Made by a program: the position numbers and the translations under genes. Positions 1-43,343 of a stretch of 64,000 nt of DNA are shown here, in pieces (within the stretch, counting starts at the first letter, position 1; each line of letters begins with the position of its first letter). Source of the stretch: Psammoneis japonica. Its lineage: Eukaryota. The notes under the pieces are model-generated. The model saw only the letters and a program-made list of their open reading frames with translations. It did not search any database and had not been told where the DNA came from. The stretch lies in assembly GCA_008632985.1 (NCBI GenBank), contig QPGO01000011.1:372001-436000 (forward strand), read 5' to 3'.

Positions 1-309
1 GATAATTTATCGTGAATTCTACACGAAAAAGTCATATTGGGGAAAACATATCGAACAATAAGTGAGTTTGTGCGATGCGCTATTATGGCGATAAATTGGA
101 AAAAAAGAGTGTCCGTGCACCTCGCTACAGCCCCAAAAATGGCATGAGACATCAAATATAACGGTCATCCGCGTCACCGGTGCGGTGGCCACGCCACTCA
201 GCCGCCACAATACCGGCCCCGGCGGTAGGGCCCTACGTACGTACAGGCAATACAGCATGCAACGGCACACATACACCCACACCCACAAAGAAAGACAAGT
301 GGTCAATGC

Positions 310-3300
310 TCCCCGCAGGCCTGGTTTCGTAGAATATCACACGTAGCCATCTACGTGCGCGACATACGGCGCGATCCAAAAAACTATTGATGTCACAGTT
401 CAGCACCACGAGGTCCCACCTAGAGCTGGAACGCGTCTGCTGGACACTTGCCCTTGTTGATTTTTGAGAGACATGTCTTTTTGTGCACCCATTCAAAGTT
501 GACCACAGAAACTCCCAACTGATCCAGAAATGACCTGTCCTCTTCTGATTGATTCTTGACATTTGAAGCCAACCACCATCTTTTGCCTGGAGCCAAATGA
601 ATGGTGATGATGATCAGGGTCCTGCATGCAGTGCGCAAATGCACGGAGCCAATCTTTAACAACTTGCTTGGTCAAAGACTGACACTTTGGTCTGCAAGTG
701 ACAAGATTGACGACATTTTTGTGCAACATGTCAGCCACATGTGGCGGCAACAAGATCCGCTCAAAACATCATGACTTCAGGCATGAGGGATCAATCAGTG
801 ATGTTTTGATGCAGCAACAGCAACTTGCCAATTTTTGTGCAGCAAAACATGCACATTTTTTGCACTGAAGCTCTTGAATTTTAGCCCAAGCAAAAAAAGA
901 AAGAAGGAGGTGGCTTTCAGCACTGCTGCAGATTCTGTGTGCTGATGGCATCACAGTGCAAAATGCATTTCTGCGCAGCACGGTGGTCCCACTCCAGGAG
1001 TGTCATGTGTGGTGCAGCAGCCATTTGAAACCTGGGTGTTGCACACCTGGGTTTGCTGGCACAGGTGTGGCACACTCGTGTGAAAAGAGGGGGTCACATC
1101 CTGCTCATTTTTGTGAGTGTGACACCTGCACCAAAGTTGCAGCTTCCACACCTGGTGGCGCTGTCAGTGCAGTGGGCACATGTGCTCATTTTTTTTTTGC
1201 TTTTTGCCAGCAGCAGTCATTTGACAGAAGCATGATGTGAGCCCCTCCCTTGGCCCCTCCCTTGTCGTCGCACAAAAACAAAAACAAAAAAACGTTTTTT
1301 GTTTTCGTGACACGCGCGACAGCCTTGTCATCAAACAGCAAACAAAAACACCCCTTGCATGCATTTCTGCACCAAACCACGCACGTGCGGAGCCACGTGC
1401 TGTCAACACCGGCTTCAGTCGACAGCAGCAAACAAAGTGGGCAAGACATGCAATGGTGCGCTCGAATCCATTCATGACGGCAATTGTCAATCAATCATGA
1501 CGCAAGTCACTGCAGTCAATGACATTGGTTGAATGTCATCTGCAGCACAAAAGATGAGATGAAATGTGGTGGACCATGCGCAGAATGCTGGTGCAACAGA
1601 TTGGTTGTCAGAAATGCGCTGTTCTCGTGTCATGTCGTCACAAGTGCACATCATGTGAGGCGACTGTAGAGTGATGGCCAAGGCAAAAGTAGAACCTCAC
1701 ATGGCCATTAAAAATGTGGCAAATTGAATGGTCACGTTCTTTCCTCCCTTTGTCGCATCTCATGTGCAGAATGCAGCGGATCGCATTGTCATGCTTTTGT
1801 TGTGTGGTCACAAATGCACGCCACAAGGCATCCACAGTGAAGGACAAGGCCACAGCAGAACTGCACATGACCAATGTCAATGTGGAGAATGAGATGGAAA
1901 AGCTTGTTCCTCCTCATTCTGCCAGAAGGGGCCGCATCACGTCGATGTGTCGATGCATCAGTCATGGTCATCACAGGTGGTGGATTTGTGCATGGAAAGA
2001 CCCACAGCGCTGCGTTTTTGTGAGCTGTTTTGTTTCCACAAAAACCAAAAACATGGTGTCGTTTTTGTTCACGAGCAGCCGTGAACAAAAACCAAAGTCT
2101 CAGTCGATCGAGTCAAAGTGCAGTCGAATGGGTCAAATGCATTTTTGTTTTTGTTTTTGTGTGACGGCAAATCCACTGCCAGCGACGACCATGACTGATG
2201 CATCGACACATCGACGCGATGCGGCCCCTTCCAGTGGAATTGGGAGGGACAAGCTTTTCCATTGAACTCTCCACATTGACATTGGTCATGTGCGGTCCTT
2301 TTTTTTTGCCTTCAACACAGATGCCTTGTGGCTTGTGTTTGTGACCATGCAAGACAAGCATGACAAAACGATCCACTGTGTTCTGCACATGAGATGCATG
2401 GAAGGGAGGCAAAAACAAGACTGTTCAATCCTCCACATTTTTGTCAGCCATGTGAGGTCCTGCTTCTGCCTCAGCCATCACTCTGGTTGCCTTGTGACTC
2501 GCGTTTGTGATGACACAACACAAGAGCAGTGCTTTTTTGACGACCGATCTGTTGTGCTGGCATTCTGCACACAAGCTGACACATTTCACCTTGTCTTTCA
2601 TGCTGTGGATGACATTCAATCAACAATGTTGACTGCATTGACTTGTGTCATGATTGATTGACAATTGCCGTCACAAAATGGATTCGAAGACGCCATTGCG
2701 TGTCTTGCCCCTTTTGTTTGTTGCGGTCATCTGCAGCCGGCATTGTCAGCACGTGGCTCCATGCACCACATGTGGTTTGGCATGCAAATGCATGCAAAGG
2801 GTGTTTTTGTTTTTGTTTGATGACAAGGCCGTCGCGCGTGTCGCGAAAACAAAAAACGTTTTTGTTTTTGTTTTTGTGCGACGTCAAGGGAGGGGCTGAG
2901 TGTGGTGCAAAGTGACAACTGCTGCAAACAAAAACACTTGCAATGGACAATGCAGGGTTGTTGTGCAGTTGACACACATCTTGGGTGTGAGCCATGCTGA
3001 GCCATTCTTTCACTTGAGGCAGCTCTGTCCAATCAGACCTCTGCACTTGTGAGCAAAAAAGTTTGGTGTCATCTCATGCAAGACCAAACAATGCTTCATC
3101 ATGGCAGAGAAAAAACAGCTCTTGTTGCCATGTTTCCCATGGTGGGACACTGCACAATGCATGTGCTTTCCACAAATGGCGCAGCACACATGAGCATTTT
3201 TGCTGCACCAAAAACACAGCACAGAGACTGTGTGCGTGCAGGTGCTTCAAATCCACTTCCAGCCCATCAATGTGTTTCTGCAAGTGTGTCAGGTCACCAC

Positions 3301-3500
3301 ATGAGCAGGACAAATGGCCGCCATGTCCCCCCCTCCCCCTGCACTGTTGTGAGGTGCTGTTCACTCATGGCAGCAGCCACATGTGGGCGACGCTGTCGAC
3401 CAAGCCCTCACAATGTTGTGCTGGCATTGTTGCTTCAATGCTTGCATTGCTGAGTCTCCAGGATGTGTGCATCACTCCGGCTTGTGCTCCAACATTTGCT
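310..3500. mobile_element. Decayed transposon-derived sequence interrupted by the foldback element; left end belongs to a dispersed repeat family (family A)
   Basis: 325-437 aligns in reverse complement with 20110-20224 and 20514-20612. Minus-strand 3010-3222 reads CFWCSKNAHVCCAICGKHMHC...SCFF, then CHDEALFGLA in another frame, resembling the Cys-rich C-terminus of piggyBac-like transposases (tentative). TpA-depleted from ~430 onward. Confidence 0.5.
1241..2896. mobile_element. Foldback-type non-autonomous DNA transposon with ~730-bp inverted arms
   Basis: ~1253-1985 is the reverse complement of ~2178-2896 (ends GCCCCTCCCTTG / CAAGGGAGGGGC). TGA flanks both ends (1238-1240, 2897-2899), a possible 3-bp TSD. 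Internal sequence is also similar to 48180-48770. Confidence 0.8.
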
Positions 3501-3725
3501 CCAAAAGGGCATCTTGAAATGACCAGAGTGACATCGGATTTTCATTCCACCACCCACAAGGATCGCCGAAAACGTTCTGAGCCTGTGGTTGCATTTCCCG
3601 GCGCATTTCGAATGAACAGACAGACACACCGACAATCTAAGCTCGCTCAACAAAAATCCGGCGCGCCGCGAAATAAGCCATGTGCAGGGGTTATGAGTCC
3701 CGAAAAACAGGGTTTGGGCCGATTT

Positions 3726-4167
3726 CTGGTACAAAACTCACGTAGAAAATTCGCGTAGAATATCTTGTTCGTCGTGCTTTTCCCGTGCTTTGCGAAAAAT
3801 AGGCCACGACCTCAAGGAATCGATTTCAGTCATAACGGTTGACACTTTGCGTACTTACTTTTTGATGACAAACACAACGATGTCCACCGTTCGGCAAAAT
3901 TCCATCATTGGAAAATGTTTACCGTGGTGGTACCGTGGTGAAGTGTTGATCGAATTTCTGAAAATGGAATTTTGAAGTGTTCACACACAGAATCGTGTTA
4001 CTTATGTAAAAGTCATCATGTAAAGTGTCAATGGTTTCAGGGGAAAACGATTCCTTGAGGCGTCGGTGGAGCAGAGAAGCACGGTAGAAGCAGGAGAAAA
4101 AAATCGGCCCAAACCCTAATTTTTATAATTTTTTCTACGTAGAATATCTACGTGATTTTTGTACCAG
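3726..4167. mobile_element. MITE-like element with ~35-bp terminal inverted repeats
   Basis: Left CTGGTACAAAACTCACGTAGAAAATTCGCGTAGAA; reverse complement of right end CTGGTACAAAAATCACGTAGATATTCTACGTAGAA. No clear TSD. Confidence 0.65.
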
Positions 4168-4211
4168 TGCACATGGCTTATCACACAAAGATGAAGCACG
4201 CATGATGCACC

Positions 4212-5104
4212 ATGAGCAACAACAACAGCGCTCCGCCACCGTCGTGCTTATCCATACAAGAAGATTGCATTTTAAAGACGTCATTAGCCTTTGTCGTATT
4301 GAGGAATCGAATCAAAAATAGCAAAGACGAATCATCAAGTTCTGTTGTTTCTCCACCACCGCCACTGTCACTCGTTGATTTGAACACTACAACTCCCACA
4401 CTTACGGCAGACGAAAATCACTTGGATCGCATGTTTCAAGTAGCGGTATCGACGGCTCGAGTCTCTTATAGGCAATACGATGGCGTCGTATTGTATCAAA
4501 GTCATGATTTGCAAAACAGCCGTTTGAGCGGTCTCGTGGTTCATTTAGCATCCCAATTTCGTTTGGCGAGTCGCAGCAACAGCGAGTGCCTAAAGGACTT
4601 GGTCAAGAATAGTTTGTTGAGATGCTTTTACTCTCGAGAAACGATATTGGCAACATGTACAGTTTGGAATGGAATTCTCACTCGAGATTGTTGTATGGGA
4701 TTCAACCTTACTGTAGCAATTGGAGCACTACTGCAAGCGTTGGACCAGAATCAATTTGATGGCTTACTGGCAGACAATACGTGCAAGATCAGCAAAAGAA
4801 TACCTCAGACATTTCAATTGACACATATCTCGCTAATGTCTTGGCTGTCAATTTGATTCACTTGTTGGAATCCATGACAATAGCAAGACTCAAGAGTGGC
4901 GTGCAATCTCACGTGATTTTGAACGAACTGCAACACGCCCTGGGCGATTCGCTCTGCTTGCCAGTTCCCATTCATGACTTGGCATACTTTTATCATCACG
5001 CAAGCAAGATGAAAACGAAGCAACTCTTGACACCCGGTGCCAAACTCATGATGCGACAGTGTCTATGGGATTTGATTCAGAAGGTGAGCAACACGAATAA
5101 TTGA
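4212..5104 (+). CDS. Hypothetical protein split into two overlapping ORFs (frameshift or unresolved intron near 4780)
   Basis: ORFs 4212-4856 and 4781-5104 are both protein-like, with normal TpA/CpG content and Tyr present. No family recognised. Confidence 0.45.
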
Positions 5105-5433
5105 AGTGGAAGTAAACGAGCACGAGTCTTTTTCGAAGAGCAAAACTGCACTTGAACACATGAATAGCTGGGGGAACGACTGGGAAAGAGAATCATAGAT
5201 ACAGAAAACTTGCATAAGAATAAATCAATGGGAGACTCCCAAAACGAGAAGAGACGTGGCTATGTTTTGACTTCACTTCTGAGCTCACTCCTCCAAGGTA
5301 TGACGACTCTCTCACTACTTAGCGTATCAATTTCCTCTTCAAATACATAGTATGAAGCACCCATACCAAGAACTCAGTAACGATATGTTATTTCCACGCC
5401 AAAATTGCTCACATCAACGCTTCTCCATAGTCG

Positions 5434-6075
5434 CTACCCTTCTTTCGAAGTCAATACAAACAGCCCCATCATTCCCACCAAAACATACTTCAATACCGGA
5501 TAGTCATTCAATGCAATCGTCACCATTCCGACATAGCGCAAGGTCCCAACCGCCTTGCCTAAAATATCGTCTCGTGACAACCACAATTGCCCCGGAGCAT
5601 ACAAGCCGCGGTCATCGACACGGTTGTTGTCGCCTTTCGTCAAGAGATCGACACGGCCGTCCTCTTTTTCGTGCACCTTTAGAATGCGATGGACAATGGG
5701 AATGTCACGATCCTTGATTTTAAACACAACCACATCGCCTACACCAACTTGTGTTGCAGAATTGTCAAGAAACAAAATGTCACCGCGTTGAAAAGCCGGT
5801 TCCATGGATCCAGACAACACTACCACAACCGGAGATTCAGACTTAGAGTATGTGAAAAGATGAGATGAGAAAATAAGTGATCAATGGAACGATAGAAACG
5901 ATCAATCAATTTATCGATTCATACATACCTTGGTGACAAACATGAGACCCTTCCAAATCATGAGCGCAGAAAACACAATCATGGCGAGATTCAGTACTTG
6001 AAAAAGCAATTGTCGTTTATTTTGCCAGAGCTTTTTCAATTCTAGCACCTGCTTTTCAATCATATCCTTAATCAT
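5434..6075 (-). CDS. SEC11: Signal peptidase complex catalytic subunit SEC11 (peptidase S26B), 184 aa, exons 6075-5929 and 5841-5434
   Basis: [10 protein letters not shown]...WKGLMFVTK, then GT-AG intron 5928-5842, then [27 protein letters not shown] and [15 protein letters not shown] motifs. Confidence 0.97.
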
Positions 6076-6676
6076 GGTTGTAGGTCACAGCGAGTGGGCA
6101 ACGCAATCGGGACGAGTTGATGCTGTTGGCTGCTAGCTGTATGTCGGCAGTCTTTAAGATTGTGCGATCGCTACATCGGCGTGCGAAACAAGTGGTCTCG
6201 CCATGGCGGTCGCTCGTAAAATCCACGTGTTGATTTGTACCGGAGCAGCTCAATAAGCAAATTGAAAATCATTCCACGTGTAAGTTTAACAGTTTTTCAA
6301 TGTTCGGCTGGAATGCTTTACGAATCCGTTCTAGCTATCGATCCTTGGCTTGCGCTTATTGCTTGCTTGCTTCGTCAGCCATAGTAAGTCTACTGTACCG
6401 GTAGTCTAGTTGCTTGTCCTGTTCACCTCTCTACTCTAGTAGTAGGGCCTACTCTCTCCACTCTCTACTAGAGAGCTCTCTCTAGCTAGAGTAGAGAGTA
6501 GAGAGAGAGAGAGACCACAACTCTCTAGAGAGGAAGGTGAATAGTAATTCGACAGAGATGGCCGCTACTGTAATACCACTTGTACGAAACACTGATACTA
6601 TGGTACTCTAATAGTTAACTTTGTCCCACAATACCAGTGAAATGTACTGTAGCGCTGAATCTCCCCCGATTCATTC

Positions 6677-9600
6677 TTATGCAAACCCTTCCGATTTTGC
6701 CTTCTTCACGACAGGCCCCCCACCTAGCAAATCACCCATGTCGTAAAGATCGTCCTCGTCGTCGCCCATCGCCGCCGCTGCCTCAAGGAAATTGGTCTTT
6801 CTCTTTCGACTCTGTTGCTCCTTTCGAGCTTCATCATCTGCAGCTCTGCTAGACTTGACCAAGCGCGCCTTCAGTGACATCCATTCCTTGGCAAATCTCT
6901 CTTGAAACGACGGCGTACCACTGTTCTCAACGTAGTTCGTCATGCAGTCGTGACTCAACGCCTCTACAGCCGAGATGCGCTTCCTCGGATCTAGGTGAAG
7001 CATCTGCGACAACAAATCAATCATGCCTGAATACTTTTCTGCGTCATCCTTCAAAATGTATTCCAATGCTTTCTTCACTCCCCTCTTGTACTTCTTTGAC
7101 GGCTCCACGTAATTGGGAAATTTGGCAGCGTCCGAGTAGTTATCAGCCGACGGAGCACCGACAATCTTGAACATGGATAGCAAAAGTGACGTCTTATCCT
7201 TTCCAACAAAGAATGGCTTTCTCAGCATCAAGTATGCAACCAGGCATCCCACCGACCATACATCGGTTTCCTTTGTGTGTTTCTTGGATCCAAGTAGCAT
7301 CTCTGGAGCAACGTAAATGTCACTGACTGTCGAGCCTTCATCGTTTTTGTCGTCACCCTTATCCTTTGCCCTTAACGCGCACTTCAAGGCATTCGGGCGC
7401 TTTTCACGTTCCTCCAAAGGCAGCACTGTCGCCTTGTACAATGAACCAAGTTTCAGTACCCCACAGTGATCCACAAAAATCTGATCTGGCTGGAAGAATC
7501 GGACAATAACGTTGTTTGTGTGACAGTGCACAAGAGCCGATAGCAAATCGTGAAACCACGAGACAAGTAGGTCCGGACTTAGTGCCACCTCCTCGCCGCC
7601 TCGTTTCTTCTTTGAACGAGAAATGAATCGATGCAGTACGAATGGCGTTGGTGGACACACAAGATGTAACCCCGAGATACCATCCTCAGCACTCTGCTTT
7701 CCTTTTCCTTCGCTCGATTGAAACAGCGAAGAAATGCTATCCTCGATAACCCCCTTGTTCTTTTTCGAGGTCTTGTCTCGTTCACCGGACTCTGAAGACG
7801 CAGCAATGGAGACCGGTAACGCAAAGTTTGGGTGGCCTTTGGGAGAAGGGATGAGAGTATGCAGCTGAGTTAAGAGTTGCATTTCTTGCAACGCCGCGGG
7901 TGAGAAGCCAATCTGCATGGGAGCTCTCCCGCTCTTGCTGGACCTTGGCTGTTCCCGAGCCTCGACCTTCTCAGGCGGCCACCGCTGTAGAGACACGGCA
8001 ACAAAGCGATCGTCATCCTCTTCATCGGCACTGCCGTCAGGTTGAGTAGCAGTGTGTAGCAAGGGGAACAAATTAGACGCCGATTCTTTTCCCATCAAGG
8101 CGTCTGTGAGGTTTCGAAGCCTCCTTACGGAGTCCAAGTCATTGGGAATTTCCGTCCCTCCAGCTCTGCACGACATGTCGCAGATTGAACCTGTCGTGCT
8201 TGCGCCGTATCGAAGCGGGATCCACCATCGTAGCCCAACATCACGCATTTCAGATTGAGGTATCCTAGCTGCTACGCACGATTTCCCACCAATCTTAGCA
8301 TCTGTTGAAACCACAAGAGACGACAGCTTCGGTTGAACTGTCCCTTCCCAGCCTGCGGTTGTTGATAACGAACTCGAAGGCAACAGTCCCGGCTCCGTCT
8401 TTACATGAGACGCCGGAAGTTCTTGATTATCGTTTGACAAATCCGCACTCAAGGGTTCCGCTTTAGCGGGAAAACCCGTGTCTTCACCGACATGAGAAAG
8501 CAACACGTGCTCAGCAACTGCTCTGGCCCTCCAACTGCCCTCCAGTATAATGTCCGACGTTCCGCCCGCCGCGCTCTGCTTCACAGAGATGCTGCATTGA
8601 CTTTCGACGCTGATTTCTTCGATGGCGGGCTCAATCCGGTCTCTCAAAGTCGCGCTGTCGACCCCTTTGAAGAGACTACGACCTTTTTCACGTTGGGCAA
8701 TAAAGTGAAAACGTTTAGCCACATCCGACAAACCTGTTGTCTTCAAAGTGGAAGCTGCTCCCAACGCCTGACTCATTTTTTCCATGCATTGGCCTCTGAT
8801 GTGTGGAACCATTTTTTCAATCTTCCTTTCACCCCCTTCAATAATATCATTAACTGAGCTTCTCTTGAAGTGACCGGTCTTTACGGCTGCCGCAATAAGC
8901 GCTGCACACTGTGATACACGCAACGGCGAAAGCGATAATGCCGTGAAGAGACGGTCGACAGATACAGATAAAAAGCAGGCAGCCGCAGCAAACACGTATT
9001 CGACACCATGCTTGAGCCACAGAGTTGCTCCTGCACCTAGTATCGGGCCGCTAAACACAAACTCCATAATTATTCTGGCCCTTCTCTCGGAGAGCCCACC
9101 GGCTGTCGATGCAGCCGCAAGAACCCAGTCTGATCCTCTCCAAAAAATGTCATAGTCCAGCGTGAGAAGAACCTCGTTTTCCGCAGTGATGACCCGCCTC
9201 TCAAAGTGCTCCGTTTCTTGGCTACTCTTGTCGAACTGAGCACCAGGGAAAAACGTTTGAAATGCGGCCTCCAAAACTGCTTCGGGCTTTTTCCACTTCG
9301 TCATTTTTTGAGCCTTACATGCCAGGAAAACACAGGCTGTGAGTACATCACGTATCTTGAGTTGTGTTCCGGGGTGATCCATTTCTGACGCCAAGCTGAC
9401 AAACCGGTACAGAATTATAGCAGCGTGAGCAGCAACACTTCCATCCATTTCTAGGTTCGACACTGTGTCAACAATTTCCACACAGGCATTCGAGATTGTT
9501 CGAGAATCAAAACCCTTGTTGGACGGACTCGATGGACGCGGCGACCTTACACCCGATCCGGATGTAGCACCAGATCCAGCTGAAGCCGTCGTCAGTGGTT

Positions 9601-12327
9601 CTGTTCTCGCGATTTCTGTCCAATCCCTCCCAAATATCCAATTATGTTTACGCAGATAATTGTCCCGATAAAGTTCAATCTGCAATCGAATGAGCTCCTC
9701 TGCAATAGCTGCAGCATTATTTCTAAGCTCAGTGGGCGGCGACGTCATTTCAGCAACTCCAGTAGCAGCGGCACCGCCATCGATCCGCAAATGATTCCCC
9801 GTCATGGCATCAACGATAACGGATGCACCAGTAATCGATTGGACATACGCCAGGAATGGGTTTCCCGGTTGCATCAAAAGAGGCTGGAACATTTTGTCGT
9901 CACCCAAATGCAGGTATTGGACACCCCGACCAAGATCCGCAAGACGTGCTTGAATAGATCCCCAAAATTTCTCGATATCCTTTGGGTCGCATCCAAGGTA
10001 CACAGTAAACCGCCATTGTCGATGAGCAGCAATCCCCCCATTCTGAACACCTAAGCCCTCTGGCTCGACCCATAGATTGCAACGTTGGGTCGTTTCAAAT
10101 GCAGGATGAAAAGTGGATGAAGCCAAGTCCAACTCTTCCAACTTCGATGACTCGTCCTGCGCTGAACTTGATGGATCTTCGTCAGAAATCTCCGGAGCCC
10201 TGCTAGAACCATTACACAGTAAAATGAGCTCGTCACTAGTCAACGTGCCCCCCGCAAAGCCCAAGTCAGTAAAAATCCCCGTTACACGTGACGCGGGTGC
10301 ATTGATTTCCATACAAATTTGAAGGAGTTGCTTCCAAAGAACATCCATGGCGACGCGTAAATCGGATACTAGCGTAGCCTCCAAAACAAGTCTGCCGCTC
10401 TTGTCGCTTCGGTTCTCACTCGGACCAAAGTTGACCTGTACACATTTACACTTGTCTCTAATCAATGGTAATTTTCGTCTGACGTGATCGACAATCATTC
10501 TAGGGATACTGACTTCTCGCGTTTCACCCGTCGTCTTGTTGGTCGCAGCTATGTCGACGACTTCGCCGTTTGCCACCGCTTGCATAGCATTGAACTTCAA
10601 AACGTTCTTTTCCAAAAATGTATACGCCTTGACTAGAGTCGGACCACTCGAGATCACCAGTTTCCATACGACTCCATCCATGGATGCCCCAAGTGCTTGT
10701 GCAACTTCTTCGTCCTTCGCTGCGTCGTCCTTGGAACATGGGATAATGCTGATTTTGACACGACAATAGGTTTCGCACCGCATAATCAAATGATTTGCAA
10801 TGAGTGCATCCTTGGCAGGCGTTTGAACGTACATGTAGTCCTTGAGCAATTTAGATTGCTCTCGACTAGCGTCATCCACCGGTACAGCACCAGCAGCGAC
10901 AATGAGGACGAGGGAGACGTCGGAATCGCTTTTTTTCTCGAAATGACAAATGCTTCCGCCTCTTGATCTAGCATCATCCAATCTTCCTTGGCCAAATCTT
11001 CCCAACTCTCTTCTCTGTCGTGAGTGTAAATGACCAAATGCTTCTTGGTGCTTGCATCGTACCGGCAAACATCGGCGGGAAAGTACTCGTGGTATTCTTC
11101 GAAAAGCACCTTGATTCTTCGATTGACAATGGACGATCCCGGTGTTTTTGAGACTGGAGCCTTCCAGTGTCCCACCAATTTTCGATCCAATTCCTCTTCT
11201 TCCAGCGATTTTGGCATTTCCAGAGTTCCTCGACAGCTCTCCGACTTGCAATGACACTTGGTGGGAGCCCTTCCCCTCTTTCGATCCCACTTGTAATCAA
11301 AGGACAACTCTTCTCCAACCATGATATCCCTCAGAGCAAACACGCCTGCTCTCACTATCCCCCGAACTCTCCATCTCATGACAATACAGTTGGGTTCACA
11401 AGAGTGATTGATATACCGAGCGTTGCTTCCCTTTTTTCGCGCATCCAGATATGTATTGTTGTCCAACGCCATAATGTAAAGCATTTGCTCGTTCTGATAC
11501 CGCCGAAAAAGTTTATCCAAATACTGCTTGCGAATGGCTTTTCCAACATACTCGATAATAAAGTCATCCTTCTTGATGGCCTCCGTCGCTCGCAATCCCC
11601 GTCCCTTGATCCCGGCTTCAAAGACTTCGAGAGACTTCCACTGCTTGCGTTGAATACGACGGTTCCCACAACTCTCGTGACAATTGCTACCACACTCTTC
11701 TTGACAGGCATACAGCACACAACTCATATCGACACAACACGGTTCGCCTTGATAGGACGGAGTACAGCCACAGGGATCCACCTTTTCGTACCGTGGGCGT
11801 TCTGCCAATTCGTTCGATAGATTCTTGTCTAGTGAATTTTGTGCCCACTCGACTTCATCAATTTCTTCAAAATCGACATCGTCTCGTAAATTCAGCGAAA
11901 GTGGAGTCGTCGTTTGTGGAATTATCGGGGCAGAAGATGTGTTTACTTCTGCTGGTTTACGATAAACTTCTGGTTGCACGCTTGGTTTCGGGATTTCTGG
12001 AGGAGGGCTACTTCCTGAAGAAACCGTAGCTACAAGAGGTGGAGGAGCCAGTGGCGATGGACCCGAGATTGGCGGTGGTGGAAACAACGTAGGATGCGGT
12101 ACTGGTGGCGGAGGCAGTGGTGGTGCAGCAATGTTGGGTGGAAATGGCGGAGGCGGCTTGGGATTGTTTGGAACCGGGGGCGGAGCGATTGCTTTTCGAG
12201 GGTCAACAGCTGTCGGAGAGGCTGCTAAGCGAGGATCCGCTCGAAATCTCGGATCATTGGTCCATCTAGTGGTAGGCTGTTGCTGCTGTTGGGGTAGCGG
12301 TGGGCCTCCATTTCCAAAAGACGACAT
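6677..12327 (-). CDS. Large fusion: Pro-rich N-terminus, AWS-SET-postSET (SETD2/ASH1 class), Tudor-like, KH-like repeats, cyclin box (T/K/L-like), C-terminal CDK-like pseudokinase; one frameshift near 10880-10935
   Basis: SET: GIKGRGL, EYVG, ARYINHSCEPNC, ELSFDY, CHCKSESCRG (~11770-11220). Tudor-like IVNRRIKVLF...YDASTKKHLVIY...EDL. Cyclin: AAIILYRF, ACVFLACKAQ, AENEVLLTLDYDI (~9500-8830). Kinase: GFSPAALQEMQLL, YVAPEMLLG, DVWSVGC, LDPRKRISAVEALSH (~8020-6940). ORFs 10786-12327 and 6677-11290 overlap. Confidence 0.88.
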
Positions 12328-12880
12328 GACTCAAACTCCGTCAACGTATGCTTCAGACACTCGTTTCTGTATTGTCTTTGTTCTCGTTCTCGACAAGGTT
12401 CAAACAGGAATCAGTTCTCTCTTACAAGCGACTTCTAAAGCGATACAAAGGTCTCACTAGAACAGCTGCAATCCATGGCCCGTTGTTAGAGAGATAGGGC
12501 CCTAACTCTACTGTTGCTGCAAATGATTGACAGAGACAGTCGGCAACACCAACACAGTGGCTGAAGCGAAGCGAGATATTTTATGATGTCGTTTTGACAG
12601 ATTGCCAGTACAAACCACGTAGAAATCTACACAAAAATCAATGCATCTTGAAAACAGAGAGATTTATACTTCATACCTGAATACAATCATTTACCTTCCC
12701 GCAAAAATTTGTGCGTGTGTCTTTGTATCCTGTGCTTTGTGCCCGTTCCATTCGGTAGCACGAACGTGCACACGTCATGTCCGATGACGTGTGCACGTGA
12801 ACGACGACGCAAAAACTCCCTCCGACCGCGACCTCCGACCCGACAATGACGCGACGATAGCCAACGAAATATTCGCCGTC

Positions 12881-13789
12881 ATGAAACTATTATTTTCCTA
12901 TCTGGGGGAGACACTGCACTCTTTGAATCCTTTACTATTAGATACTCCACCAGCTCAGGAAGGAAGCCCGCGGGATGTCTGTTACAATGGTGTGCTTTGT
13001 GGCGATCTTCAAGACGGAATTCGCCCTAACGTTGCAACGTGGTATATTTCTCCAGAACAGCACGTAAAGGAGTCACTCTTGGCTCTGGTCCTGTTTGGAA
13101 CGATCTTGTTCCTTGTGAAACCAGTACTGTCAAAGGCTGCTTCTCAGAATGCTCAGAATCAGAATGCTATTCAACATCCATTCTTTATGAAACCGCTTGT
13201 TTTCTTTTGCTTTGGAATGCAAACGTGGTACAAGCTTCAAGGCCACACTGGAAAAATATTCTTCATGATGGTACCCTGTAACATGATTTGGGCTCTTAAC
13301 ATGATTCTATGCTTTGGACCCTCGTCTTGGCAACGGACTTCCCTTGAACTGGTTTACAGCTACATTGGCTTGGCATTTATTGCGGTTGCCTCTCCCGATA
13401 CCAAGGACTGTATTCTGCCGGGGGAGAGCGTATTTTTCTACTTTCATCACACCATGCTACTCTTGATTCCCTTTGTGTACATTTGGAACGGTAGCTGTAC
13501 AATAAAAACGTCCCTTTCCACTCATGTTTGTTGGTGGCTGACGGCGTGCAGCTTTTTCGCCATTTTTTACTTTCCAATCATTACACTATTCAGTGTCAAG
13601 ACGGGTCTCAATCTCAATTATATGATGCACCCGCCACCCACTCAAGATGTTTTGCAAGGCGAGGCATATCGACAAGTTTCGACTGCTTGTTGCGCCATGC
13701 TCTTTGCCGTGTCGCGATTGATTGTGTGGATGGTCGAATTGCTGATTACCAAATCAGCGATTCGAGTAAAGGTCGTAAAGAGAGCTTGA
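12881..13789 (+). CDS. TMEM164-family multi-pass membrane protein
   Basis: Several hydrophobic helices. FFMMVPCN, FYFHHTMLLLIP and GLNLNYMMHPP resemble TMEM164 conserved blocks. First ATG at 12881. Confidence 0.75.
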   Translation: MKLLFSYLGETLHSLNPLLLDTPPAQEGSPRDVCYNGVLCGDLQDGIRPNVATWYISPEQHVKESLLALVLFGTILFLVKPVLSKAASQNAQNQNAIQHPFFMKPLVFFCFGMQTWYKLQGHTGKIFFMMVPCNMIWALNMILCFGPSSWQRTSLELVYSYIGLAFIAVASPDTKDCILPGESVFFYFHHTMLLLIPFVYIWNGSCTIKTSLSTHVCWWLTACSFFAIFYFPIITLFSVKTGLNLNYMMHPPPTQDVLQGEAYRQVSTACCAMLFAVSRLIVWMVELLITKSAIRVKVVKRA

Positions 13790-14128
13790 GAATATTGATT
13801 GGTTTGGAAGATGTCTATTTTTACGGTGAATTGGCAGGAGATACTTCAACTACGCTTTGAACAGCTGTCGCAACAACTGAACTGAACGTGCTCTCTAGAG
13901 AGAGTATTGAATCTTCTTTAGAGGTTCGTTTCCCACAATAGACTAAACTATAGACTCTAGACCAATTGTAATCCCAAGAGAAGCATTTGCTTTTGGGTTA
14001 GAGGAATGGGACTAGGAGGTAGTTGTCTTCAAGGATTTCGCCTCTTTTGTTTGGTGTCCGTCTGTCCACCCTTTTCCCTCCTAAGTTTTCCTCATGATGT
14101 GAGGCCATGACGATGTTGCGTTGGTTGC

Positions 14129-15346
14129 ATGGAAAACAACGCCCCCTTTGAGCCACTGCTTGCTATCGACAATACAACGCCTCCCTCTTACTCACGTATT
14201 CAGATGCACAACATGTTATCACGCCAACCTCTGATCCTGTTGCTGTCGACGCTGCTACTACACCTGCTTTTCACAGCACATGCTCGGCACACTTCGAATC
14301 ATGCTTTGATTGTCTCGTCTTCTCGCTATTGGTTCAACTATCGACACGCCAACAACGCCTTTTTAATGTATGAGAAATGTTTGTCGTATGGAATTCCTAA
14401 GGAAAACATTATTCTTATGGTCGCGGATGATTACGCCACGAATCCTCGAAATCCCGTAAAGAACAGCATGTTGTGGCAAGGCCAATCCCTCTACAATGCA
14501 TCCACTGAAATTCACTATCGCGGTGACGATGTTACAGTTCATAATGTACTCAAGGTCTTATTGGGAAAAGGAGAGAAGAATGTCTTGCAAACCAATCATG
14601 AATCCAACGTTTTGGTATACTGGACAGGCCACGGTGGAGACCAATTCTTCAAGTTTCAAGACTATGAAGAAATCACAGCCAAGGACATTCGAAATGTGTT
14701 TCTACAGATGCATCGCTTACAAAAGTACAATGAACTCTTGTTTCTAGTTGATACGTGCCAAGCCTTTACTCTTGCGAATGAACTGGACGACGTGCCCAAT
14801 GTTTATGCCATTGGAAGTTCGCTCAAGAATGAGAATTCCTATGCACACCACTCGGACAGGCAATTGGGACTCAGTGTCATTGAACGATACACTCATGTGC
14901 TGATTCAACATTTGGACCAGTACGGATTGAATACTCCCCTAAAGCAAACCATGGTGGACCTCATGAATCAACCACAGTATCGACGTGTCTTGGGGTCAAC
15001 TGTTGGTTACAAACAAGGCAAAGATTGTCGTCGAGATGGAAACCAAATACCCTTGTCTGATTTCTTTGGTCGACCTGAGATTCAAAGTGAAACTCAACTG
15101 AGCAAGTCTTCAATGCCATCTTCTGTGTTGGATGCCTTTTCATTCAGCGTGGCGTCTTTCAATGCCACTACTTTTGTTCAAGAGGCAAGTAGTGCCGATG
15201 CGCTGCCACCCTCTGACGACGACAACTCGAAAACGCAGCCCAATCAGAGCGAGCGATTTCATGGTATCGATCCGTCAGATATCCAGTTTGTTACGTTAAT
15301 CTTGGCATTTGTCGCTGCGGTGGTGTGGTGCTCGGAACGTTGGTAA
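14129..15346 (+). CDS. GPI8: GPI-anchor transamidase catalytic subunit (peptidase C13; Gpi8/PIG-K)
   Basis: SSRYWFNYRH, YWTGHGGDQFFKFQD (catalytic His), DTCQA (catalytic Cys), signal peptide and C-terminal TM. True start may be 14204. Confidence 0.95.
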   Translation: MENNAPFEPLLAIDNTTPPSYSRIQMHNMLSRQPLILLLSTLLLHLLFTAHARHTSNHALIVSSSRYWFNYRHANNAFLMYEKCLSYGIPKENIILMVADDYATNPRNPVKNSMLWQGQSLYNASTEIHYRGDDVTVHNVLKVLLGKGEKNVLQTNHESNVLVYWTGHGGDQFFKFQDYEEITAKDIRNVFLQMHRLQKYNELLFLVDTCQAFTLANELDDVPNVYAIGSSLKNENSYAHHSDRQLGLSVIERYTHVLIQHLDQYGLNTPLKQTMVDLMNQPQYRRVLGSTVGYKQGKDCRRDGNQIPLSDFFGRPEIQSETQLSKSSMPSSVLDAFSFSVASFNATTFVQEASSADALPPSDDDNSKTQPNQSERFHGIDPSDIQFVTLILAFVAAVVWCSERW

Positions 15347-15620
15347 TCGAAACAGCAGCGCGCCCGATTCATACTTCAACTCACAGGACGCGTTAATGCT
15401 TATGCAACCTCTATCGATCATATCAGATGGTGGAACCGCATCTGCAGGTGGGGTACAGCAGGTTAGCTCTTCTCCGTCTGCTTCTGAACCCGAGCACTCC
15501 AATCTATTCTGGCCAACATGCGTTCGTCACGCATCTGTATGAGACTACTTCTCTAGCTCTAGAGAGATGCGTCCACGCACGTTATGAAATGTTATCAACT
15601 GTCTTTATTAGACTTATATT

Positions 15621-16235
15621 TCAACCTTGTTTTGATTTTTCCTTTGCCGACACTTGCTCGTCAGCCAGCACAATCTTTGACGAAATTGTAGACATGACGC
15701 GATAATGACGATCCACGAGCAAATCAATTCTGGTCGCCACTTGGTCGGTGCGTGCTTTAATGTCTGCCAATTGAAACGATAGCACATCCAACCGTCGTTC
15801 GTCTTCAAGAGAAATAGTACCACTAGGCAAGGCCACAATGGGTGCTTGTGTTACCTGGTCTTGCCGTAGCTTAGCGTTGTCTGCTTTGGAGGATGAAATT
15901 GACAAGAGACTGCAAATCGTCGAGAGCTGTTCCATGTCACTTTTCATTGAATCACAGGACGCCAAGACTTCTTGGAGTCTCATGAGAAAGGGGGCATTCT
16001 TTTTGGCCTTGTGATAGTGCAGAGTCGAGAGTTGATCCATGGCTGTCGCGGATTCAAGAGCGGAATCATCGGGAGCGAGACTTTTCCATTCGGATAGGAG
16101 GGCATCTAATCGATTAGACACGCTTGAAGAGATGGTTTCATCTGGAGTTCCCACCTTAGACTCCAACGACATGAGTCTCGCCTCCATGGACTGCGATGAA
16201 TGGGATGCAAAGCCGTCGGACATTGTTGCTGTCAT
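15621..16235 (-). CDS. Coiled-coil protein, possibly dynactin p22/DCTN3-like
   Basis: Intact ~204-aa ORF from MTATMSDG. N-terminal EARLMSLESKVG and C-terminal LLVDRHYRVMSTISSKIVLADEQV weakly recall DCTN3. Confidence 0.55.
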   Translation of the reverse strand: MTATMSDGFASHSSQSMEARLMSLESKVGTPDETISSSVSNRLDALLSEWKSLAPDDSALESATAMDQLSTLHYHKAKKNAPFLMRLQEVLASCDSMKSDMEQLSTICSLLSISSSKADNAKLRQDQVTQAPIVALPSGTISLEDERRLDVLSFQLADIKARTDQVATRIDLLVDRHYRVMSTISSKIVLADEQVSAKEKSKQG

Positions 16236-16307
16236 GCCATGGTCTTCTTTCTCTGTGTCGTACCTATCGTCGCGTCGTTCGTCTTCCGGCGGCCTGACTG
16301 TCTGTCT

Positions 16308-17375
16308 GGGACACACGGCATTTTGTCGCATTTGGCGACATTTTCTTAAATGAATTGATGATTTGTCGCGAAAAGACGCGAATTGCGACAAAATGTCCGG
16401 GTTGGCGATAAACGGGACAGAAACATTGTTTAATTAAGTTATGAAATGCTTAATGTCATTTATAACCAACCTGATTTTTGGCGATGTCGTTTCAATAAGT
16501 GGGGTAATTAACAGAATTTGGCGATCGATGTCATCGACGAAAATTCATCCGACAAAATTTGTCGTATACGACAAAATTTGTCGTATCCGACAAATTTTTT
16601 GTCGGATGTCCGACAAAATTTGTCGGCATACGACACGACACGACAAGACACGACACGACACGACAAGACAAGACACGACACGACACGACACGACACGTCA
16701 CGACACGACGACTCACGAACGAAACACCCACGCCCCCCGCACACGCTAACCGCTAACGTCTCCGTTGACACTACCGGTATGTCTCTTTTGCGCGATGATG
16801 CAAAGCGACGATCATGCCGCTCTCGGCGGTCTCCATACTCTCGTCAATACCGGGACAACATCGTACACTTCTACATAGTGCAACGGAATGTACCGGTATG
16901 TATGTATTGCTGTACTGTACCTTTTATCAGTACGACTGGGCACTTCTGAATGTTGGGGAGCGTTGCGTTATCGGTATGTCGCAAACGTCCGTCTGTCGGC
17001 GTTTGTCGGCTCTTGTCGGCTCTTGTCGGCGTTTGTCGTACGTTGTCGGGGTTTGTCGGGGCTTGTCGGGGTTTGTCGGGGCTTGTCGGGGTTTGTCGGG
17101 GTTTGTCTGTCGTATCCGACAAAATTTGTCGTACGTACGACAAAATCGCCAAAACATTAATTAATAAGTACAGTCTTCGCCGAAAGTTAAATTCATCATA
17201 TAGCACTGTAGTTGATATAACGTGTGTGTTTAGGACACGCCATCGCCAATTAAATGATGATTTTGTCTTATTTATCGCCAACGGTTGAAATTTGTCTCAA
17301 AGGGCGTTTTTCACGACAAATCGTCCAATTCATTTATGGGAATGTCGCAATTGGCGACAAAATGCCGTGTGTCCC
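16308..17375. mobile_element. MITE / non-autonomous DNA transposon with ~125-bp imperfect TIRs and internal simple repeats
   Basis: Ends GGGACACACGGCATTTTGTCGC / GCGACAAAATGCCGTGTGTCCC. Internal CGACAAAATTTGTCG palindromes, (ACACG)n at ~16630-16710 and a 10-bp GTCGGGGYTT array at ~17000-17105. Right end abuts the N gap. Confidence 0.85.
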
Positions 17376-18202
17376 NNNNNNNNNNNNNNNNNNNNNNNNN
17401 NNNNNNNNNNNNNNNNNNNNNNNNNNNNNNNNNNNNNNNNNNNNNNNNNNNNNNNNNNNNNNNNNNNNNNNNNNNNNNNNNNNNNNNNNNNNNNNNNNNN
17501 NNNNNNNNNNNNNNNNNNNNNNNNNNNNNNNNNNNNNNNNNNNNNNNNNNNNNNNNNNNNNNNNNNNNNNNNNNNNNNNNNNNNNNNNNNNNNNNNNNNN
17601 NNNNNNNNNNNNNNNNNNNNNNNNNNNNNNNNNNNNNNNNNNNNNNNNNNNNNNNNNNNNNNNNNNNNNNNNNNNNNNNNNNNNNNNNNNNNNNNNNNNN
17701 NNNNNNNNNNNNNNNNNNNNNNNNNNNNNNNNNNNNNNNNNNNNNNNNNNNNNNNNNNNNNNNNNNNNNNNNNNNNNNNNNNNNNNNNNNNNNNNNNNNN
17801 NNNNNNNNNNNNNNNNNNNNNNNNNNNNNNNNNNNNNNNNNNNNNNNNNNNNNNNNNNNNNNNNNNNNNNNNNNNNNNNNNNNNNNNNNNNNNNNNNNNN
17901 NNNNNNNNNNNNNNNNNNNNNNNNNNNNNNNNNNNNNNNNNNNNNNNNNNNNNNNNNNNNNNNNNNNNNNNNNNNNNNNNNNNNNNNNNNNNNNNNNNNN
18001 NNNNNNNNNNNNNNNNNNNNNNNNNNNNNNNNNNNNNNNNNNNNNNNNNNNNNNNNNNNNNNNNNNNNNNNNNNNNNNNNNNNNNNNNNNNNNNNNNNNN
18101 NNNNNNNNNNNNNNNNNNNNNNNNNNNNNNNNNNNNNNNNNNNNNNNNNNNNNNNNNNNNNNNNNNNNNNNNNNNNNNNNNNNNNNNNNNNNNNNNNNNN
18201 NN
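17376..18202. other. Assembly gap (N run)
   Basis: 827 N bases. Confidence 1.
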
Positions 18203-20100
18203 GGTGCTTTGAAATGTCCCTCATGAGCAGAGCTTCTGACTGCACTGCTGTCACTTGTTTTTAGAGTGGATCACATTTTTGTGGTGTGAATTTGCTGGCT
18301 CAGCATGTTGCTGGTTGGGTGACATTGTCATCATGAGGAAGAACTCAGCACGGCTCTTTTTGGAGAGATGCTGGAACAGCTTTTTGTGGAGTCTGGGTGG
18401 TGCTCCTGTGATGTGGAAACATGAGCCACCTGGTGCTCCTGTGTGAACCTGCATAGTTTGAGCACAGTTGCCTCCCACTGACTCAGCATCTGAAATCTTG
18501 TCATCACCCCATGCCCCTTGCATTCCTGCACATGTGTCAACAGGCATTCCTGCGCCCGATCGCACCACTGTCAATTGATTGGTGCATGGCCTGGAGCCTC
18601 CCAATGTTGCGGCACAACCCCCTCCTGCAGACATGCAGCAGTTGTTGACTGTCCCATGGTTGGCGCCCAAACAATGAAGAGGACTTGAGGACATTGGCAT
18701 GGTGTGCGAAGAGCCAAAAGAAATGCATTGGAAGAGAACTGCCGCACTTTGCAAGCTGGGTCAGGCAAGCCACAAGCAGTGGATTCATGTCACTTGCACT
18801 CACTTTGTTCAACCTGATCTTGACATGGGCCAGGTGTCTGACATGCACCATGCTGCTGTCCAATTTTGTCAGAAGGGTGACATCAAATTTGATGTCTGTC
18901 TTCCAAGTCAGAATCACAGCAATGACAGCCTTCACATTGTTGATGAGGGATGCCTCATCCTTGATCAAATGGATTTTATGGCCCTGTCCAAGAAAGCCAG
19001 TGAAAATCCAGCTGATTGTTCCTCCTCTGCTGGCGACATTTGGAGAGCACTGGGCTTGTGCACAGATTGTGGCTGCACTTCTGGTTTTGAAAATTGGGAG
19101 ACGAAAGACATGTCTGCAATCAAGGCAGCAATCAAAGCAGAGGTGGAAGAGGGCCAACAATGAGATTGCGTTGAGTGACGGTTTTTTCATTGCACAAAAA
19201 TTGGAGACTGGCTCTGGAGCACATTGTGAGTGTTGTTGCTTTTGCGAACACAGTGCATGCTTTTTGGTGGGGACCACAGCACAGACATGGTGGTGGAGGG
19301 GGGTGCAGAGTGAATTGAGTGTGTCCGAGCATGGAAGATGTGTGTCACATGATGCGAACTTGTGAACCTGCAAAAATTTTAGATGACTTCGACCAACAGG
19401 AAATCGTGCCAGAATTTTGAGCAGAGGGCGTGGATGTGGAAATGCATGGGGGGAACATGCACGTGTGTGGGCAGGCATGTCAGCACGCCATCGTTGGGCC
19501 TGGCATGTGCTTGATTTGCGACCCAGCCCGTGAACAATGTTGCTTTTTCCCAGAAGAGTTGAGGCAAACACTCCGCCATGCCCAGCCTGACACAGATGGG
19601 AATGGACCATGCCAAAGCCTGCTGCAGCAATGTGAGGTGAGAGATGAGTGAGTGAGATGAGAGGCAATTGAAAAATGCTGGCAGAAGTTGTGGCTTGTTG
19701 TTCCTGATGCAGGGACAAGAGGTGTTGGCTCCAACACAGAACAATGTGCCAGGAACAACCGTGATGCAACACGGAGGTGGGCCAGTTGCAACAGGCGGGG
19801 CTCTTGCCACATTGAGCACAGAAGACTGGATGATGAGTGAAAAAAGAAAGAAGAAGCAGTGCAACAAAAAAATGAACAGCAGGGACAAGATTGTTCTGAA
19901 GAACTGCTGCAAGAACACCTTGTTCAGACAACACAAGTTTCTGAACAAAAAGGACATCAACAACAGCAATGGGAGGGTTGCAAGCACTGTGCTGTTCAAA
20001 ATCAACATGCCCCAAGAAAAGAGAGCTTGATTTTGGGAAACATTGAAGGATGAGGTGTGAAGGCAGATGACAAGAAAGAGGAACAATGCAAGTGGGGAAC
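18203..20100 (+). mobile_element. Decayed repeat family B, unidentified coding remnant
   Basis: ~18640-18840 (MVCEEPKEMHWKRTAALCKLGQASH) matches ~50740-50950 on the minus strand (MVCEEPKQLRWKRASALCKLGQASH). TpA-depleted. Confidence 0.55.
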
Positions 20101-39931: not shown

Positions 39932-40150
39932 ATTATGCAGAACTCATTTTTGTTTCGTGATTCTGGAGAGTCGTCGGTTTGTTGGGCTAATTTACTCTAC
40001 TTTCAGTGAGTATACTTTGGAACTTGTCCCACGAGGCATTGAATTATGCAGAACTCATTTTTGCTTTGTGATTCCGGAGAGTCGTCGGTTATTTGGCCTA
40101 ATTTACTCTACTTTCAGTAAGTACATTTTGGAACTTGTCCCACGAGGCAT
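39932..40150. repeat. Two tandem ~110-bp units
   Basis: AATTATGCAGAACTCATTTTTG...GAACTTGTCCCACGAGGCAT occurs twice. Confidence 0.85.
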
Positions 40151-41207
40151 CTAACCGGTACATTGGCATTCCTCTTTTGTCAGTGTTCCACGACATCTCA
40201 ATCTTCTGTCTTTGCGCTCCTGTGTTCTTTGTGGAGGCATCTAGTCGGCAGCGGTATCGAAGAACTTTAGAAACAATCAGCTGAAGCAGTAAAAGTTCAG
40301 CATCTTGTGTTCCGGATGACCTGGTGTTGTGCGCTCGTGGCCATATTGTCTCGGCATTCTCTTTCAGGAGAGTAAGTATTTCATCTTCAGCGTGCCGCAG
40401 GAGCAAGTGCTGGTAATCCCGACTTGCGGCTCCCTGCATGTCCCACAACTCGCATGCACCCACAAATACATGGTAGAAGTGCACTTCCAAGTGATGCCGT
40501 TTTGAAGTCTTGGCATTTGTAACCAACAAGGTAAGTGCGTCGCCCCGCGTCCTGAATTTCTTTACGAAATCGTCCTTGCTCGCGTCTTTGTCTAACAGCG
40601 TTGGCCCGACAATGTTTGCCACCACAGTACATTGTATTGCAGTGTACTTCTGGTTCCCTCTCCAAAATACATGATCTCCGGTTTCTGGTAAACCAAAATC
40701 TGACGGAGAGCAATAGTCGGCCATCCCGACAAGCCAAACGACGTCACCCCCTTTCTTTGCGAACATCTCTTCTACCAGCAGACGTCTCATTTGCTTCGCA
40801 TTCCCATCCACATCAAATGGTGTTGTATGGCTACATTGGCTACCTTGATTGGATGCAGGACTTTCTTGCTGCGATGGCGCTTCCTCAGCAACAATGCTTC
40901 GGGTTTGGCGGCGCTCTGTCTGCTTCGCTCTCTTGGGTCGTCGTTTCTTGATAGCGAAACCATCATTCGCACCAAAGCTAAAGAGCCTTTCCACAGTTTT
41001 ATCATAACAATCTAAGACTAGTCTTAGCTCTTTGTTTGTTTTGTTGTCTTTTGGACCTCCTTTTGAGTTCAATCCTGCGGTGTCGACTCGCACCGAGTTT
41101 CCCGAATCATCACAATTCACAACAGTATCAAGAGAGTAAAAGCTCTGAAAGAGACCTTTCTTGTCTCTTCTGTCAATCAACTTTCCTGTTGAAAGAGATG
41201 GACCCAT
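40098..41207 (-). CDS. Hypothetical protein, 369 aa
   Basis: Uninterrupted ORF with normal Tyr/TpA content. Basic NLS-like KKRRPKRAK. No family recognised. Confidence 0.6.
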   Translation of the reverse strand: MGPSLSTGKLIDRRDKKGLFQSFYSLDTVVNCDDSGNSVRVDTAGLNSKGGPKDNKTNKELRLVLDCYDKTVERLFSFGANDGFAIKKRRPKRAKQTERRQTRSIVAEEAPSQQESPASNQGSQCSHTTPFDVDGNAKQMRRLLVEEMFAKKGGDVVWLVGMADYCSPSDFGLPETGDHVFWRGNQKYTAIQCTVVANIVGPTLLDKDASKDDFVKKFRTRGDALTLLVTNAKTSKRHHLEVHFYHVFVGACELWDMQGAASRDYQHLLLRHAEDEILTLLKENAETIWPRAHNTRSSGTQDAELLLLQLIVSKVLRYRCRLDASTKNTGAQRQKIEMSWNTDKRGMPMYRLDASWDKFQNVLTESRVN

Positions 41208-42929: not shown

Positions 42930-43330
42930 GCAGCTGTGTCCGCGATGCTTTTTCATGAAGGCGTGGGTGATGTTTTCAAAGCTGAGAACATTCTCATAAT
43001 TTTCCGTACAAAACGTTTCAAGCGAACAGCGACGCGATCTTCGTTCGTTGGTATGTGTCCGCGATGTTAGTTCTCAGCTGGGTGAGCGATACTTGTTCAC
43101 AAGGTGTGGGTGATGGTTTCAAAGCTGAGAGCATTCTTATAATTTTCCGTACAAAATGCTTCAAACAAACAACGGCGCGATCTTTGTTCGTTAGTGGGTA
43201 GTGGGCACGCGATCTTTGTTCGTTGCCGGGTCTGCGATATTGGTTCGCAGCTGGGAGCGCGATGCTTGTTCAGAGGTGGTGTAGATTGCAAGGACACGGA
43301 TATTCTCATAATTTTACGCACAACACTTTT
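42930..43330. repeat. Degenerate tandem repeat (~145-bp unit, 2-3 copies) upstream of the secreted-protein gene
   Basis: GTGGGTGATG..TTCAAAGCTGAGA..CATTCTYATAATTTTCCGTACAAAA recurs at ~42963 and ~43106, with a partial third copy. Confidence 0.7.
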
Positions 43331-43343
43331 CAAACAACTGACA

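Follow-up and report, generated by a model that had tools for sequence, protein, structure and literature searches.

A putative H3K36 methyltransferase fused to a transcription-type cyclin and a catalytically dead CDK fold in Psammoneis japonica, diatoms and oomycetes

The 64,000-nucleotide stretch of Psammoneis japonica contig QPGO01000011.1 analyzed here (assembly GCA_008632985.1, positions 372,001 to 436,000 of the forward strand; hereafter the window) carries on its minus strand a gene predicted to encode one nuclear protein that unites an intact SET domain, a transcription-type cyclin and a catalytically dead cyclin-dependent kinase (CDK) fold. Taken as a whole, the protein may best be explained, with a confidence just short of even, as a methyltransferase for lysine 36 of histone H3 (H3K36) that reaches elongating RNA polymerase II (Pol II) via a dead P-TEFb-like module. 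A first-pass annotation of this DNA had described colinear AWS-SET-postSET, Tudor-like, KH-like, cyclin and CDK-like domains, and this order was confirmed by Pfam, profile and fold searches (indirectly for the Tudor-like domain); the motifs quoted in that annotation are present in the sequence.

Two overlapping minus-strand open frames cover the gene, with the Pfam match to SET in the first (12327-10786) and those to the kinase and Cyclin_N in the second (11296-6677). Among 64 close homologues found with the second frame, SET and kinase Pfam domains are present on one chain in 56, and both window frames are matched on one chain by 58. Complete transcript-derived open reading frames (ORFs) P0044 and P0052 hold the fusion as well, so that the single chain proposed in the first-pass annotation is retained where two separate genes might have been found. 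Eight of the 64 homologues are without one domain, most of them apparently truncated. The named close homologues are diatoms (Bacillariaceae, Cyclostephanos, Fistulifera, Skeletonema and Extubocellulus), while a wider search added distant members from Triparma, Chrysoparadoxa and Aphanomyces; further oomycete members come from Achlya, Saprolegnia, Globisporangium, Plasmopara and Nothophytophthora. An oomycete query returned 34 matches, 25 of them with SET and kinase, including many Phytophthora, Peronospora, Bremia and Pythium proteins. When scanned with diatom-built profiles, full-length distant members show the same succession of SET, cyclin and kinase. One homologous gene model, P0243, is joined to triosephosphate isomerase. 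The family was probably already present in the ancestor that ochrophytes share with oomycetes.

The fusion of SET to a dead CDK is already in print. Judelson and Ah-Fong (2010; PMC3019232) described Phytophthora infestans PITG_14137 as an inactive CDK-like kinase with an N-terminal histone-lysine methyltransferase. In the accessible portion of that article, orthologues are given only for P. ramorum and P. sojae, SET is the sole accessory domain listed, with no cyclin, Tudor or RNA-binding fold, and the supplement places CHED/CRK7 closest to PITG_14137. Protein P0258 equals the available PITG_14137 supplement row in length, N-terminus and kinase motifs, and its close relatives P0245-P0247 fall within the clade of the window protein, which shares the SET-cyclin-pseudoCDK architecture. 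In contrast to PITG_14137 as published in that portion, the family described here spans downy mildews, Pythiales, Saprolegniales, Triparma, Chrysoparadoxa and diatoms, and in diatoms the protein has four or five additional KH-like folds. No other paper found describes the fusion, in a search that left outside most subscription journals and some supplements and figures (bioRxiv 2021.11.30.470311, PMC10421102, PMC10013772), and a literature search with the gene name PITG_14137 returns PMC3019232 alone. The available portions of PMC2872877, PMC3145265, PMC13076208 and two bioRxiv preprints do not describe it, and a survey of diatom SETD2 homologues (PMC10421102) never uses the words kinase or cyclin in its accessible text. 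In the literature found, there is no mention of the cyclin or of the class to which it belongs, nor of a family that extends over both diatoms and oomycetes.

The SET domain has the characteristics of the H3K36 class (KMT3). The AWS-SET-postSET arrangement is present with intact NHxC and ELxxxY motifs, and the catalytic Asn, His, Phe and Tyr are found in 57 of the 57 homologues with residues at these sites. The closest solved relatives are ASH1L (1e-37), SETD2 (2e-36) and NSD (2e-33), followed by Set1 (2e-26) and EZH2 (6e-22). Motifs and best matches together support the H3K36-class assignment made in the first-pass annotation, and suggest that the domain very probably methylates H3K36. The AWS-SET-postSET core is shared with Set2/SETD2 (KMT3A; E 2e-36), and the Fistulifera member is labelled SETD2 in databases. 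In contrast to Set2/SETD2, the family is without SRI and WW domains, and cyclin and pseudokinase follow SET instead: Pfam scans gave no match to SRI (PF08236) or WW in the window ORFs or the family proteins scanned, and the C-terminal part is accounted for by the cyclin and kinase folds. An SRI search of the P. japonica genome was also without a match, although its control was unmatched too, making this result uninformative. ASH1L and NSD1-3, for their part, provide the top SET match (ASH1L) and a close third, whereas the window protein has no bromo, PHD, BAH or PWWP match, and a separate NSD-like gene with PHD is present in the genome. That gene (L017, 4963-8370) is of the PHD-AWS-SET type, while L018 and L019 encode PHD/bromodomain SET proteins. 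The latter two lie in overlapping frames, pointing to introns or further assembly indels. Three paralogues were scanned, and among the four best SET matches examined (of seven) only the window gene and the NSD-like gene are AWS-type.

The kinase domain (Pfam E 1.6e-20) has lost its catalytic residues and kept its fold. Catalytic sites were placed using the canonical kinase motifs. In 63 diatom-type homologues the HRD Asp, the DFG Asp and the catalytic-loop Asn are each absent throughout (0/63), and among 43 distant members neither the HRD Asp nor the DFG Asp occurs (0/43 for both). The dead kinase of the first-pass annotation is thereby upheld, with HRD or DFG restored in no homologue. The same annotation had read beta-3 VAIK as VAVS; the loss of the Lys stands, as neither candidate column holds one in any of 64 homologues, whereas the register is uncertain, since VAIK may correspond to VSLQ (VCVQ of P0161 aligns with VAIK) and the profile alignment left this point unsettled. 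The replacements at the catalytic sites vary between lineages. Retained features include the alpha-C Glu (63/63), APE and the C-lobe, the catalytic-loop Arg (R in 61 and K in 2 of 63), a basic residue after the DFG site (R in 42, K in 21 of 63), an Asp at the second position ahead of the catalytic Asn site (62/63 in diatoms) and family-specific invariant motifs in the N-lobe. In active CDKs, the basic residues of the catalytic loop and after DFG bind the phosphorylated loop. A single-chain model from cyclin to kinase (987 amino acids; predicted template modelling score (pTM) 0.85, predicted local distance difference test (pLDDT) 81) matches whole CDK chains, namely CDK3 (Z 24.5, root-mean-square deviation (rmsd) 2.9, 280 aligned), CDK9 and CDK7 (23.8) and CDK11 (23.1). 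The domain is consequently a CDK-like pseudokinase that is missing the beta-3 Lys, HRD Asp and DFG Asp of active CDKs. Activity by an atypical mechanism, or at least nucleotide binding, might be imagined for a domain with a full bilobed fold, APE and C-lobe motifs and the near-invariant Asp; it is nevertheless highly improbable, given that Lys, HRD Asp and DFG Asp are missing in every member examined and that their replacements depend on the lineage.

Cyclin and kinase both resemble components of the transcription machinery. The Pfam match to Cyclin_N (E 1.8e-4) is below the cut-off, and the cyclin is supported by a profile match to cyclin T1 and a fold match to cyclin L2 (Z 19.6, rmsd 2.9, 206 aligned). 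A profile built from 12 sequences matches the transcriptional (T/K/L) cyclins, with T1 at 2.5e-10, T2, L1 at 2e-7, K at 8e-7, L2, C at 1e-4 and CCL1; no A/B/E (cell-cycle) cyclin is among the best 60 of 94 profile matches. The comparison that aligned the domain with cyclin T1 agrees weakly with this class. In a first, quick kinase tree (32 family members, 37 active kinases) the family forms one clade (99) that joins 14 PITAIRE-type kinases (93). A mixture-model tree with 18 family rows, from which 14 family and 2 reference rows were left out, again returns one clade (99) within a PITAIRE/PITSLRE group (97), the oomycetes being sister to the rest. The two trees and the cyclin profile lend support to a link with CDK9/12 and cyclin T/K that had earlier been guessed from one helix. 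An elongation-class origin thus appears well supported for the cyclin and moderately supported for the kinase. A T/L/K-class cyclin and a kinase grouping with PITAIRE-type CDKs are shared with P-TEFb (CDK9-cyclin T) and CDK12/13-cyclin K, from which the family differs in being a single chain, with the cyclin first and the catalytic residues lost. Cyclin and CDK-like domains also share one chain in the oomycete and alveolate CDKs with a C-terminal cyclin and in giant-virus kinase-cyclin fusions, which appear as look-alike clusters (0.84-0.88). The giant-virus fusions have no SET. In the accessible text of PMC3019232, inactivity is likewise predicted for the oomycete proteins; there, the oomycete and alveolate proteins have the kinase first, one Asp-to-Asn change reported and no SET.

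Several observations bear on how cyclin and pseudokinase are paired. A Lys and a Glu of the cyclin are invariant (64/64) and line up with the same pair conserved in cyclin T1; together with the alpha-C Glu they belong to the CDK-cyclin interface, both halves of which are thus retained. The proposal of intramolecular pairing found support in the single-chain model, whereas a two-chain prediction gave no verdict: with cyclin (residues 42-298 of A1) and pseudokinase (390-935) as separate chains and the alignment unused, its scores were 0.26 and 0.02, where 0.34 was the mark to reach, which is evidence neither way. The cyclin probably packs against its own chain's pseudokinase, which would create a constitutive, dead P-TEFb/CDK12-like unit. 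Alternatively, the cyclin might bind a real CDK9/12-type kinase in trans and so tether the methyltransferase to an active CTD kinase (a kinase of the Pol II C-terminal domain, CTD), leaving the pseudokinase as a placeholder. The invariance of the CDK-binding residues would suit such an arrangement, and an intact PITAIRE-type kinase (L004) is encoded elsewhere in the genome, along with other CDKs. The alpha-C helix and flanking loops of the pseudokinase, however, are nearly unchanged, as expected for an occupied interface, and the pTM of the single-chain model is high; binding in trans is accordingly quite improbable.

The region between SET and cyclin holds KH-like folds and a Tudor-like domain. 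Residues 498-894 are modelled as four KH-type units, and KH domains lead both fold searches (Foldseek, KH tandems at the top with E 3.9e-4; VIA, Z 9.5), placing the units with the type I KH fold. Between the Tudor-like domain and the cyclin, P0223 and P0229 carry a canonical KH domain with GxxG and a CCCH finger, and P0241 a weak RRM (E 0.0013). The RNA-binding-type domains of this segment thus vary with the lineage: canonical KH with CCCH, weak RRM, or degenerate KH arrays. The Tudor-like domain itself has no direct Pfam match in the window, and an atlas search with that part gave no usable match. Support for it is indirect, in that P0223 matches PF21743 (E 2.6e-4), a diatom-built profile matches the same region of P0223 (3e-18), and the alignment has conserved Tyr and Trp columns.

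It is proposed that the cyclin-pseudokinase unit is a docking module that would anchor the methyltransferase to the Pol II elongation complex, where it might recognize the phosphorylated CTD, nascent RNA or Spt5/PAF-type factors. Docking may be assisted by the folds of Tudor-like and RNA-binding type that lie between SET and cyclin, and the unit would take the part played by SRI in Set2/SETD2, while CTD phosphorylation would be left to the separate, intact PITAIRE kinase of the same genome. Docking in place of SRI has, in our estimation, close to an even chance of being correct. An evolutionary scenario is offered more tentatively, in which an H3K36 methyltransferase, in the forebear of ochrophytes (diatoms included) and oomycetes, may have swallowed an entire P-TEFb/CDK12-type kinase-cyclin pair that lost catalysis and became a Pol II-docking reader replacing SRI. 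As background to this proposal, the available text of PMC4872076 states SRI-CTD coupling, and that of PMC5457138 reports that in yeast RNA helps Set2, Ctk1 and Bur1 to associate with chromatin. For oomycetes, the accessible part of PMC10013772 describes three KMT3 clades and no SRI domain in P. sojae, with almost 50% of H3K36me3 (the trimethyl mark) remaining after loss of PHD-type PsKMT3.

Certain observations weigh against this proposal. The SET scores do not tell SETD2 apart from ASH1L or NSD as the possible orthologue, and P0062, a transcript-derived ORF marked complete (1217 amino acids), is without the SET part. The GxxG loop occurs in none of 59, 59, 63 and 65 rows for the four diatom KH folds, which makes RNA binding by these folds doubtful; in the third fold, the GxxG seen in 51 of 60 rows falls on a strand, not the loop. 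Both trees are quick searches with long branches, their references being unnamed query matches labelled by their motifs and including no CDK8-type kinases. Sequence scores tie CDK2 with CDK12/13, and the fold Z values of 23.1-24.5 span CDK3, CDK9, CDK7 and CDK11, so that neither tells the CDK classes apart. Finally, pTM expresses model confidence only, from a predictor well acquainted with cyclin-CDK pairs.

Two other roles were weighed against docking. In the first, the cyclin-pseudokinase would be an internal regulator that stabilizes or autoinhibits SET, with a partner or phosphorylation as its switch and with targeting provided by the Tudor-like reader. The conserved basic residues of the catalytic loop and after DFG fit this role, as do the invariant N-lobe motifs, and Set2 carries an autoinhibitory domain (PMC13535259, as far as accessible). 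Internal regulation leaves unexplained why cyclin and kinase are both of the elongation class, and we regard it as unlikely, though compatible with docking and not exclusive of it. In the second, the enzyme would methylate a transcription or splicing factor rather than a histone, and the module would work at the spliceosome much as cyclin L-CDK11 does. Cyclin L2 is the best structural cyclin row, the profile search returns both L1 and L2, the kinase tree group includes PITSLRE-type kinases and RNA-binding-type folds are present; against these stand the best match of AWS-SET-postSET to H3K36 enzymes, a lead of three orders for cyclin T over cyclin L in the profile search, and the restriction of AWS-type SET to the window gene and the NSD-like gene among the matches examined. 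A substrate other than H3K36 is therefore rather improbable.

The two open frames of the window are separated by a frame break that went unmentioned in the first-pass annotation, whose single gene model is sustained by the read-through frame and the fused homologues. Contigs from run X1 (6485-11691) and run X2 (6629-11691) each cover the region unbroken, with a single gap, one additional base at 10889-10891; both runs come from one sample of one study and are possibly related to the assembly source. Read-through with X at the break gives 1883 amino acids without a stop. Among 28 coding substitutions between runs and window (drawn from 40 of 97 listed differences), 23 leave the protein unchanged when the read-through frame is translated, as do 2 in the other frame tested. 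The single-nucleotide polymorphisms (SNPs) at 10897, 10930 and 10939 are synonymous in the upstream frame only, which places the frame switch after them. The break is likely an assembly error. A truly frameshifted haplotype, that is, a null allele, is improbable: many substitutions relative to the window are common to X1 and X2, indicating that the window is a different haplotype, and the window's own version is in no run, yet the extra base of X1 extends a short homopolymer run, the coding differences are mostly synonymous in the read-through frame, and all conserved motifs are kept in both gene halves. Two other sources of the break were rejected. For an intron joining the frames many GT-AG pairs fit, but homologues align across the junction and the runs differ by one base; a slip in the A7 run around 10930 is contradicted by the position of the extra base (10889-10891) and by the SNP at 10897, which suits the upstream frame. 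The X2 contig skips an 87-base GT-AG intron of the neighboring signal peptidase gene (minus strand, 5842-5928), so X2 may be cDNA-derived, though it is listed as guessed DNA. The layout of the gene is given in Table 1.

Table 1. Parts of the fusion gene in window coordinates
Feature	Position	Strand	Basis or remark
Whole gene	6677..12327	minus	apparently intronless; 1883 aa (amino acids) once the one-base break is read through
N-terminal region (aa 1-160), Pro-rich, little conserved	11848..12327	minus	conservation 0.09-0.15
Cys-rich AWS-like pre-SET region	11647..11775	minus	ASH1L AWS alignment; PF17907 in homologues; no direct Pfam match in the window itself
SET domain, H3K36 class, NHxC and ELxFDY catalytic motifs intact	11290..11604	minus	PF00856 E 3.5e-24
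Post-SET CxCx4C	11218..11256	minus	sequence; conserved across homologues
Tudor-like domain	10963..11130	minus	indirect, via homologue P0223; no direct Pfam match
One-base frame break	10889..10891	minus	+1 base in contigs of both covering runs, X1 and X2
Four KH-like folds without canonical GxxG loop	9647..10837 (about 10837-10571, 10525-10307, 10261-9926, 9919-9647)	minus	model pLDDT 84.5
Cyclin, two cyclin folds, T/L/K class	8759..9505	minus	invariant Lys 9316-9314, Glu 9181-9179
Small alpha/beta domain, possible fifth KH-like fold	8489..8689	minus	suggested by secondary structure alone
CDK-like pseudokinase, full bilobed fold with N-lobe insertions	6848..8404	minus	beta-3 8002-7976, alpha-C 7903-7883, catalytic loop 7504-7481, DFG site 7444-7436
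C-terminal tail, basic and acidic motifs conserved	6677..6847	minus	homologue consensus; possible nuclear localization signal

The gene is flanked by a SEC11-type signal peptidase (5434-6075), a TMEM164 family member (12788-13789), a peptidase C13 (14111-15346) that we take to be GPI8-like, and a weak dynactin p22-like ORF (15621-16433). No functional link between the gene and its neighbors is evident within the window. A short AG/CT-rich repeat element lies directly downstream of the gene at about 6450-6530, where the X1 contig has very high depth and many loose ends. Short tandem repeats occupy 16500-17200, and after them comes an N gap about 900 bases long (17330-18220). The dinucleotide TpA is nearly absent from 1-4000, 18001-40000 and 44001-64000, with observed/expected ratios down to 0.00-0.1 in most 2-kb bins; these regions are apparently non-genic, with low CpG and an excess of CpA/TpG, whereas the gene-rich bins of 4001-16000 and 40001-44000 have TpA ratios of 0.50-0.68. 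The TpA depletion amounts to a strong mutational signature that is specific to sequence context. A role of the fusion protein in protecting genes from a TpA mutator, raised as speculation in the first-pass annotation, has no support: the family long predates this genome.

Gene-body H3K36me3 has been mapped in diatoms and Phytophthora, and in yeast and animals the SRI domain couples this mark to Pol II. The family described here is a concrete, single-match candidate for the coupling that lacks SRI in P. sojae (PMC10013772, accessible part). If the docking proposal is correct, it would represent a lineage-wide alternative route to transcription-coupled H3K36 methylation, and a natural single-chain pseudo-CDK-cyclin acting as a CTD-binding adaptor. 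A remark made in 2010 on one Phytophthora gene is now tied to a conserved protein of two major lineages, which may constitute a rare case of a CDK-cyclin pair retained for its shape alone.

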